A DNA stretch of 57,172 nucleotides, filler included, from Diploschistes diacapsis (taxonomy: Eukaryota), in NCBI GenBank assembly GCA_023645945.1. It is 6 parts of 6 records of this genome, joined end to end, with 100 filler letters (N's around TTAATTAATTAA, not from the genome) between each part and the next. Parts side by side here need not be neighbours in the genome. Positions count along the whole stretch, not along the records: positions 9,568 to 19,031 come from JALAIB010001037.1; 5 more parts are not named here. One strand, given 5' to 3'. The notes below the pieces were generated by a model. The model had not been told where the DNA came from, searched no databases, and worked only from the letters and a program-made list of their open reading frames with translations. How positions within the stretch are numbered: the stretch's first letter is position 1; every line of letters starts with the position of its first letter. Position numbers and translations under genes: made by a program. This document shows positions 9,258 to 12,445 of this stretch, piece by piece.

Positions 9258-9263
<6 letters not shown>

Positions 9264-9307
<44 letters not shown>
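9264..9307. repeat. (AG)n microsatellite
   Basis: Direct reading. Confidence 0.95.
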
Positions 9308-9308
<1 letters not shown>

Positions 9309-9467: not shown

Positions 9468-9567
9468 NNNNNNNNNNNNNNNNNNNNNNNNNNNNNNNNN
9501 NNNNNNNNNNNTTAATTAATTAANNNNNNNNNNNNNNNNNNNNNNNNNNNNNNNNNNNNNNNNNNNN
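9468..9567. other. Artificial contig spacer 44N-TTAATTAATTAA-44N
   Basis: Identical 100-nt structure occurs five times; the core places stop codons in all six frames. Confidence 0.98.
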
Positions 9568-9651
9568 GTCCTGTCGGCCGAGGAGGCGGCGGAGATTGGG
9601 GCGCTGCTGGATGATGAGGGGGGCGACGGGCTGGAGGATCCGTTTGATTGA
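9568..9651 (+). CDS. Possible 3' end of a truncated gene
   Basis: GC-rich open frame from contig start reading VLSAEEAAEIGALLDDEGGDGLEDPFD*; identity unknown. Confidence 0.4.
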   Translation, partial: VLSAEEAAEIGALLDDEGGDGLEDPFD

Positions 9652-10721: not shown

Positions 10722-11110
10722 TTATACTAGTCAGCAGTGGTTTCTACATAAAATCAAGAAAACAACTCACGAAATCTACTCCGATTGTAGAAATGTAGCT
10801 CTCGGTGTAGGTGTCGTCAGCGAAACGGAGAAGTAGGCAAGACTTTCCTACTCCAGAGTCTCCGATGAGTAGCAGCTTGAACAGGTAATCGTATCTGTAA
10901 GTGTCTAGGTCAGGAAAATCGCTCATTTTGAAAAGCATGATGGCTGCTTTCGCTTGTGCCTTGGGATGAGGGTGGAGAGCGGAAACTTGGCATAGCGAAA
11001 AGGCTTGCAACAGGTCTGGATAAAGGTCAAGTATAACTCTGAGGCGCCGAGATATTAGCTCCCGGTGTCCTCTACCCAGTTCAGACCAGTACTCACCACT
11101 CTGGATTCAT
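10148..11110 (-). CDS. YPT1: Rab1/Ypt1 GTPase
   Basis: Exons 11110-11100, 10894-10771, 10719-10672, 10619-10392, 10342-10148 give [22 protein letters not shown]...[10 protein letters not shown]...GNKSD...GGCC*. Confidence 0.98.
10895..11099 (-). other. Nested spliceosomal twin intron (stwintron, [D3,4] geometry) in ypt1
   Basis: GA|GTG[GTGAGT...GCTAAT...CAG]AGT...CCTGAC...ACAG|A TAC. Inner intron 11096-11039 (58 nt); outer intron 147 nt once the inner one is removed. Confidence 0.8.
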
Positions 11111-12445
11111 CGCTGCGGCTGTAGAGCTGATCGGTATAACTGCTTATTAGACTGGGAGACTTCAGAATGCTGCCGGACTGTAAACAAAGGAGAACAGTAG
11201 AGCAGCGTTTATGTCTCGGTTGTCCAAATGAGCGCAAGGCGAGGAAGGTGCGGTAAGGGGTTGTGAGATGGACAGAAAGGACTTTCTATGGATCACGAAA
11301 GACAGACGTCGTACGGACAGTACCAGCACTGGCACTTTTAGGCGTCCTTGAAAGGTGGATGATGCTACTAGTCCAGCGGAGGCTTAGCTTGCCAAGTTGG
11401 TGTCGGTCACGGGCTTACTATCATGCGGCGCCTTATTAGGCTTCGGATTTAAAGGTACGAACGCCCACTTAAGTCCGATCACGTCAACATCTTGTTCATC
11501 AAGAACAACGGAACAAGCTCGCTATCCAGGTATGGCCAGTGAGGACGGTGGCGAGGTGGGCTGCCTGATGCATATGTGGGAGCTTTCCAATACTAATCCC
11601 ATGCCTGCTTCGGCTCTTCGCCGCGTCAGTGGAGTCGACCGTTGCGTGGATGAAGCACCGCACTTTTTTAGTCGAGATGTTGCTGCTTTCCGTCCGTGCA
11701 ATGGGTGGAACTTTGACTACTCCTGGAAGAGCCAGCATCGACCAATCTTCTAGGCCCGGTGATTGTTGATGATTTAGATGTAGTTCGTTGCTCTTATAGA
11801 TGGAGTAATGGTTGGTTGTGGAAGCACGAGCGCTTGCTTCGAAAGCAGGACATCACATAAAGTTGTGGAAATCGTCGGTGTTGTTCATTTATATTCATTC
11901 ATACTCATACTCGCATCTATAATGTCATTCGTATTAACATAGACGTTAATGTTAGCTTGCATGTAGCGAGATAATCAGGTACTTGCTACATCGACAATAA
12001 TGATTTCTGTCTGCCATTGGCAAATGAATCCATCTTGCCGATCACAAGCTTGCCCTCCAGCTAGCCTCGACCTTGCAGAGGAGCCCTCGTTACCTGAACA
12101 ATGGCAGCGCTGTATAGTAGCTGCACTACCATGACCTCCTGCTAGCTAGCTGAAGAGAACTAGCCGGACCCGTCTTACGCATCCATTCACTCAACAAATC
12201 CTCCTCCCCTTCCGTCCGTGTCTCCCTATGGATGCTAGGTATCTACCTCCCTCCGCCGGAGTTTGCACTCGGCTCCCGTACGTAGAGCTTGACAATTTCC
12301 TCACGCATCGCCTAGTTTTGGTCGCTTTTTAGCCCTCGAAGCACGACTTCACTTTCCGCACCCACTGCATGTTCCTCCAGGGACCACTGTGTATCCTTTG
12401 TAGGGGTCATCCTTGACCTTGATTAGCAGGTAGCCAGTTACTCAT

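Follow-up and report, generated by a model that had tools for sequence, protein, structure and literature searches.

A nested first intron in the ypt1 gene of Diploschistes diacapsis as a candidate [D3,4] spliceosomal twin intron

The ypt1 gene and its first intron

The window, i.e., the whole stretch of DNA analysed here, comprises 57,172 nucleotides of Diploschistes diacapsis (assembly GCA_023645945.1), which we take to be a filamentous ascomycete, judging from the Ypt1 sequences of that group. The gene ypt1 lies on the minus strand, within the part derived from JALAIB010001037.1. Its first exon (11100..11110; ATGAATCCAGA) consists of the ATG (11110-11108) and eight further nucleotides and ends with the A at 11100, which is base two of the codon for Glu4. 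Exon 2 (10771..10894) starts with ATACGATTAC at 10894 and supplies the third base of Glu4 as well as the codons from Tyr5 to Phe45, including the P-loop GDSGVGKS. Exon 3 (10719-10672), exon 4 (10619-10392) and exon 5 (10342-10148, ending with the stop codon TAG) follow, and they are set apart by three ordinary introns of 51 nt (intron 2, 10770-10720, donor GTGAGT), 52 nt (intron 3, 10671-10620, donor GTATGT) and 49 nt (intron 4, 10391-10343, donor GTTGGT). Exon 4 finds its best matches among solved structures in Rab-1A (E 2.8e-40) and yeast YPT1 (E 7.4e-37); the gene is therefore a Rab1/Ypt1 orthologue, which agrees with the identity assigned in an earlier, sequence-only reading of this DNA. 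Two simple repeats lie ahead of the part that carries ypt1 (starting at 9568). The joined part before JALAIB010001037.1 holds a (GA)n microsatellite of about 24 units (9262-9308), and an (AAT)n run of about 22 units from 9400 leads into N blocks (9469-9511 and 9524-9567) around TTAATTAATTAA, the filler between parts.

The stretch between exons 1 and 2 measures 205 nt in total (11099-10895, read on the minus strand) and features two sets of intron signals. It opens with GTG (11097..11099), followed by a unit of 58 nt (11039..11096) with the donor GTGAGT at 11096-11091, the branch-point element GCTAAT at 11059-11054 and the acceptor CAG at 11041-11039. No other AG lies between the first consensus branch point and this CAG, and the branch A is 16 nt away from the 3' splice site. 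Directly behind it stands AGT (11036..11038), with which the remaining 144 nt begin (10895..11038); these contain a second branch-point element, CCTGAC (10914-10909), and end in the acceptor CAG (10897-10895, reading ACAG). Removal of the 58-nt inner unit joins GTG and AGT to a GTGAGT donor and leaves a rebuilt outer intron of 3 + 144 = 147 nt. The subsequent join of 11100 to 10894 reads ATG AAT CCA GAA TAC GAT TAC, i.e., the conserved start MNPEYDYLFK. No alternative nested decomposition of the 205-nt stretch was found, with no other GT..AG inner unit leaving a consensus donor. The elements of this nested arrangement, their positions on the minus strand, the sizes of both introns and the N-terminus obtained by their removal had all been put forward in the sequence-only reading, and they proved to be correct to the base.

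The sole GT..AG excision yielding MNPEYDYLFK is that of 11099-10895, the first hexamer of which is GTGGTG. The consensus GTGAGT sits three bases inside the stretch, and when it is spliced straight to the distal acceptor (11097 joined to 10894), the result is GAG TGA with a stop at codon 5. This nonsense join, likewise proposed beforehand, holds in the window and is predicted from sequence as GAG TRA in all seven loci compared below, because GTR precedes the A of exon 2.

Conservation of the nested layout in related loci

Metagenome contigs were scanned with exon 4, which yielded 565 relatives, the best 80 of which were examined. Eight loci among these best 80 of 565 share the exon structure of the window. 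Two of them (L002 and L005) were dropped, their sequence ending 5' of or within intron 1, and the comparison set thus consisted of the window and six loci with intact 5' ends (L001, L003, L004, L006, L007, and L035). All seven read GA|GTR|GT(A/G)(A/T/C)G(T/A) at the border of exon 1. Likewise, AGT stands directly behind the first AG past the first consensus branch point in six loci and TGT in one (L001), and the rebuilt donor would therefore be GTRAGT in six loci and GTATGT in one. The layout common to all of them is GA|GTR|GTRNGN..branch point..YAG|WGT, so that the GTR[GT...AG]AGT-like arrangement, for which an alignment had been proposed in the sequence-only reading, is kept in the window and six metagenome contigs alike. 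The inner and outer introns measure 58 and 147 nt in the window, 99 and 136 nt in L001, 69 and 111 nt in L003, 183 and 78 nt in L004, 60 and 132 nt in L006, 81 and 111 nt in L007, and 63 and 100 nt in L035. Two exceptions were noted: the inner donor of L001 is GTACGA, with A at +6, and a further CAG|AGT in L004 lacks a consensus branch point.

Across the seven loci, intron 1 is saturated, with 33-52% identity in MAFFT alignments vs 70-90% in exon 2. This saturation supports the independence of the loci (seven loci, six of them on metagenome contigs) and is the sole basis on which they are treated as independent. Upstream of the split donor, ATGAAYCCNGA is kept directly 5' of GTR in five of the six related loci, while the leader further upstream is not kept. 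The locus L035 (2150-2330) belongs to a more distant Rab1-like gene with 76% identity in exon 4 and the start MASQE, not MNPE. It keeps the same four intron positions as well as the layout GTG|GTAAGT..CAG|AGT, and the arrangement would therefore predate the divergence of the L035 lineage or paralogue.

Further collections were searched as well. With the exon 4 query, the prokaryote genome collection returned only distant small GTPases in MAGs and no fungal orthologue. Many of these hits (within L081-L159) are Rab-like small GTPases from Asgard archaeal MAGs with 39-61% identity to the query, and one entry of this collection (L100) is a fragment of 393 nt. The viral contigs contained one match to the pattern ATGAAYCCNGAGTRGTRNGT, which has no Rab exon behind it and was discarded as a chance hit.

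Six loci of another gene structure (L009, L024, L025, L031, L015, and L043) served as controls. They carry one canonical intron of 180-611 nt, located 3 nt downstream. Five of the six read ATG .. CCN GAR TA|GTRAGT ... YAG|Y GAY TAC, which places a phase-2 intron within the codon of Tyr5; L043 features the same kind of junction (TA|GTAAGT) behind a different leader peptide, with GAC as the codon before TA. A branch point in the interior with WGY directly behind the next AG is absent from all six control introns, whereas all seven window-type loci have one. The string CCCGAGTAGTGAGT of L024 and L015 matches the pattern CCNGAGTRGTRNGT of the window-type loci, where it is necessarily read GA|GTA|GT...

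The frequency of the nested pattern by chance was estimated with 2000 shuffles of the intron interior, scoring a consensus branch point whose next AG precedes WGY. For the window alone, 4.2% (strict rule) to 8.5% (loose rule) of the shuffles give the pattern, and the per-locus chances across the seven loci amount to 1.3-4.7% under the strict and 2.0-8.5% under the loose rule. If the loci are independent, log10 p sums up to -9.1 over all seven, i.e., to a product of about 1e-9. The window contains 12 tandem GTRGTR sites on both strands together, and only that of ypt1 features the full pattern; the full motif is expected on average 0.99 times per block-shuffled window vs one observed occurrence. 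The chance for the window alone is thus not negligible, and the case therefore rests on the comparison with the other loci. As judged from these sequences, it is only through them, seven of seven window-type loci vs none of the six loci of other structure, that the nested pattern is far beyond chance.

An expectation of about one motif per window is also what could make the nested signals appear coincidental, in which case the true message would use another start codon, an ATG inside the intron or an open frame spanning it. The exon-2 frame is indeed open through the whole of intron 1 in the window (ORF 10744-11106, 120 codons, minus strand) and contains in-frame ATGs at 10937 and 10925. However, in L003 and L006 the same frame runs into stops within 12 codons of exon 2, and the open frame of the window is therefore probably a coincidence. 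The retention of ATGAAYCCNGA before GTR, next to a leader that is not kept, also speaks against another start, as do spliced contigs of relatives which start with MNPEYDYLFK (L008, L010, L012 and others). Accordingly, we regard a coincidental origin of the nested signals as highly improbable. Six sequencing runs matched the window, the best of them with 0.13 of the sampled words. Matching at 80% likeness gave 139 contigs from four runs. All of them stay below 99% and represent Rab1 messages of relatives only. The run contigs of these relatives give no cover from 10930 to 11350, and their loose ends at 10894 read ATGAAYCCNGA on the gene strand.

Donor quality, proposed order of splicing, and a possible shift of the intron position

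The donors of ypt1 differ in the base at +5. All 23 donors of introns 2-4 (eight loci) have G at this position, and the same is true for the seven inner and the seven rebuilt donors of intron 1. The raw outer hexamers, on the other hand, have T in all seven loci (GTGGTG in the window, GTAGTA in four and GTGGTA in two loci), which suggests that the raw outer hexamer would be a poor donor before the inner unit has been removed. A second peculiarity concerns length, as ordinary ypt1 introns comprise 49-110 nt (21 measured) vs 163-261 nt for intron 1, which is two to four times longer; each half of intron 1 corresponds to the size of an ordinary intron.

Both peculiarities bear on the main rival description of the locus, a route with precedent in animals, in which the upstream GU of a delta-3 tandem donor (GTG-GTGAGT) is cut and one ordinary 205-nt intron leaves in one reaction. 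Binding of U1 would then take place in the strong downstream register and U6 and U5 would set the cleavage three bases upstream; the inner acceptor would have no role, or would serve only occasionally. Such an intron obeys the GT..AG rule and gives the right protein at once, and two GY do stand three bases apart at its 5' end (GTGGTG, 11099-11094). According to the accessible text of the respective studies, many species make use of tandem GYNGYN donors (PMC1779574), and at the delta-3 donor of human STAT3 the U1 register does not dictate where cleavage occurs (PMC11162779). As the register of U1 need not fix the cleavage, it is conceivable that the upstream GU is used in one step, at least for part of the transcripts. 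Still, a single step leaves unexplained why a branch point, a YAG and an exact AGT or TGT are conserved in seven saturated introns and lacking in the controls, and it is at odds with the T at +5 of every raw hexamer and with the excess length of intron 1. In view of this, single-step removal is considered unlikely, albeit clearly less so than a coincidental origin of the signals. Alternative use of both sites would not yield two protein variants, given the GAG TGA of the window and the GAG TRA of all seven loci.

The preferred reading, which we hold with a probability of roughly 80%, is that the 205 nt between exons 1 and 2 of ypt1 form a donor-disrupted spliceosomal twin intron (stwintron) of type [D3,4]. 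This architecture, suggested before from the window, is supported at the level of sequence by the layout shared among the seven loci and by the raw outer hexamer without G at +5. The inner unit corresponds to a canonical U2 intron (GURWGY donor, branch element, YAG), with an equivalent in each of the seven loci, and it interrupts the donor hexamer of the outer intron, where its excision rebuilds a consensus in all seven. As a first step, the strong GTGAGT (11096) would pair by intron definition with the nearest GCTAAT..CAG (11039), leading to removal of the 58-nt unit. The resulting join of GTG (11099-11097) to AGT (11038-11036) would create a GTGAGT donor three bases upstream, from which a second, ordinary splicing reaction would remove the 147-nt outer intron up to 10895 via CCTGAC..CAG and thus generate ...CCA GA|A TAC... 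Pairing of the strong donor with the distal acceptor would, in contrast, retain three bases in the message and turn codon 5 into TGA. The order of the reactions, the intermediate RNA and the nonsense by-product are deduced here by analogy to demonstrated stwintrons.

The control loci further offer a possible history of this arrangement. Exon 2 starts with ATAC in the window-type loci and with C in the controls, and the offset between the intron positions of the two groups, three bases, is exactly what remains at the exon after the inner intron has been removed. Six other eukaryote loci carry an ordinary donor 3 nt downstream, and the inner donor would therefore occupy the ancestral donor position; judged by its wider distribution among the sequences compared, the TA|GTRAGT position is presumably the ancestral one. 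An inner branch point together with YAG|AGT may have arisen in the ancestral Rab1 intron, followed by the gain of three bases at the acceptor by exon 2 (ATAC for C), which would have moved the mature junction 3 nt upstream. Thereafter, only the nested route would have given the correct message. From this comparison, we infer that the twin intron was the way by which the lineage shifted its mature ypt1 junction 3 nt upstream.

Relation to described stwintrons and other nested splicing

Stwintrons serve as models for the origin, movement, and loss of spliceosomal introns. Recursive splicing at ratchet points of long animal introns is related to them in its stepwise removal and in the regeneration of a donor after the first step. 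At a ratchet point, the acceptor is directly followed by an entire donor (YAG|GTRAGT). The donor of ypt1 is divided instead, its first three bases staying at the exon and only its last three standing behind the acceptor. The inner acceptor is followed by AGTTAT, which contains no complete donor, and the ratchet-point reading was rejected because there is no GT directly after this acceptor.

The types named in the accessible parts of the stwintron literature are [D1,2], [D2,3], [D4,5], [D5,6], [D6,7], [D7,8], and [A2,3] (PMC7138796; PMC5639578; PMC12403724; PMC9024468). The three types cited as best known in the sequence-only reading, i.e., [D1,2], [D2,3], and [D5,6], are confirmed by this list, but they do not exhaust it, as [D4,5], [D6,7], [D7,8], and [A2,3] have been published, too (PMC7138796, as far as accessible). 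A [D3,4] type is absent among those named in the accessible text of the same four papers (PMC7138796; PMC5639578; PMC12403724; PMC9024468). According to the authors of PMC12403724, in the text at hand, nearly all described stwintrons are [D1,2]. Text searches for ypt1 and GTPase returned no mention in PMC5639578, PMC9024468, PMC6616335, PMC8469720, PMC5587772, PMC12403724, and PMC7138796, and Rab is likewise unmentioned in the part of those stwintron papers searched for it. The combination of stwintron with ypt1 and Rab brought up no stwintron paper among the matches listed, and Ncypt1 gave no literature match.

Two-step excision with pairing of the nearest sites was demonstrated by RT-PCR for ascomycete [D1,2], [D2,3], [D4,5], and [D5,6] stwintrons, as stated in the available portions of PMC7138796 and PMC5639578, and [D1,2] stwintrons show occasional mis-splicing (PMC12403724; PMC9024468, available portions). 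The closest counterparts described by Flipphi, Fekete and co-workers in these portions are the [D2,3] stwintron of bioDA in Sordariomycetes and the [D4,5] stwintron in a reticulon-like gene of Lipomyces lipofer (PMC5639578; PMC7138796). Both consist of a canonical U2 intron nested in the six-base donor of a second U2 intron, and, as in ypt1, excision of the inner unit rebuilds a consensus donor and the halves are of ordinary fungal size. The bioDA stwintron is, in the text accessible, conserved across the whole class (PMC5639578; PMC7138796). The ypt1 case differs by the split between donor bases 3 and 4, by its host, the essential Rab1/Ypt1, and by being known here from sequence alone. Unlike in bioDA and L. 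lipofer, the leftover in ypt1 has the length of a whole codon, so that mis-splicing would give an in-frame stop and not a frameshift.

A stwintron of the [D1,2]/[A2,3] kind was proposed to account for the shift of an intron by one nucleotide (PMC5587772, in the part consulted). It resembles the ypt1 case in linking positions which differ by few bases between orthologues. The shift in ypt1 amounts to 3 nt, only one pathway is visible, the ancestral donor would survive as the inner donor, and the link to the shift is drawn here from the comparison of loci. Delta-3 tandem donors of the GYNGYN type share with ypt1 the two GT three bases apart at the 5' end of the intron, and, as far as the sources were accessible, both of their sites give viable mRNAs one codon apart (PMC1779574; PMC11162779). 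The strong downstream site of ypt1, in contrast, would by itself lead to a stop, from which the conserved inner acceptor is predicted to rescue the message.

Taken further, ypt1 would harbor the first [D3,4] stwintron and fill a gap in the published donor series, fixed in an essential gene across a deep fungal lineage and forming a living record of a three-base shift. The ancestral GAR TA|GTRAGT donor would still be recognised first but would now only rebuild the donor 3 nt upstream, and every failure of the first step would end in a stop at codon 5. We consider this extended proposal about equally likely to hold or to fail. Ordinary GT..AG gene models hide two-step splicing, and an annotator would record an intron of 205 nt at this position. 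If the [D3,4] reading applies, the arrangement could be traced across very many fungal genomes, since ypt1 is essential and easily aligned, and it would offer a concrete way in which an intron position could move by 3 nt. Under this reading, a trafficking gene would also be expected to produce nonsense transcripts at a constant low level, measurable in mutants of nonsense-mediated decay.
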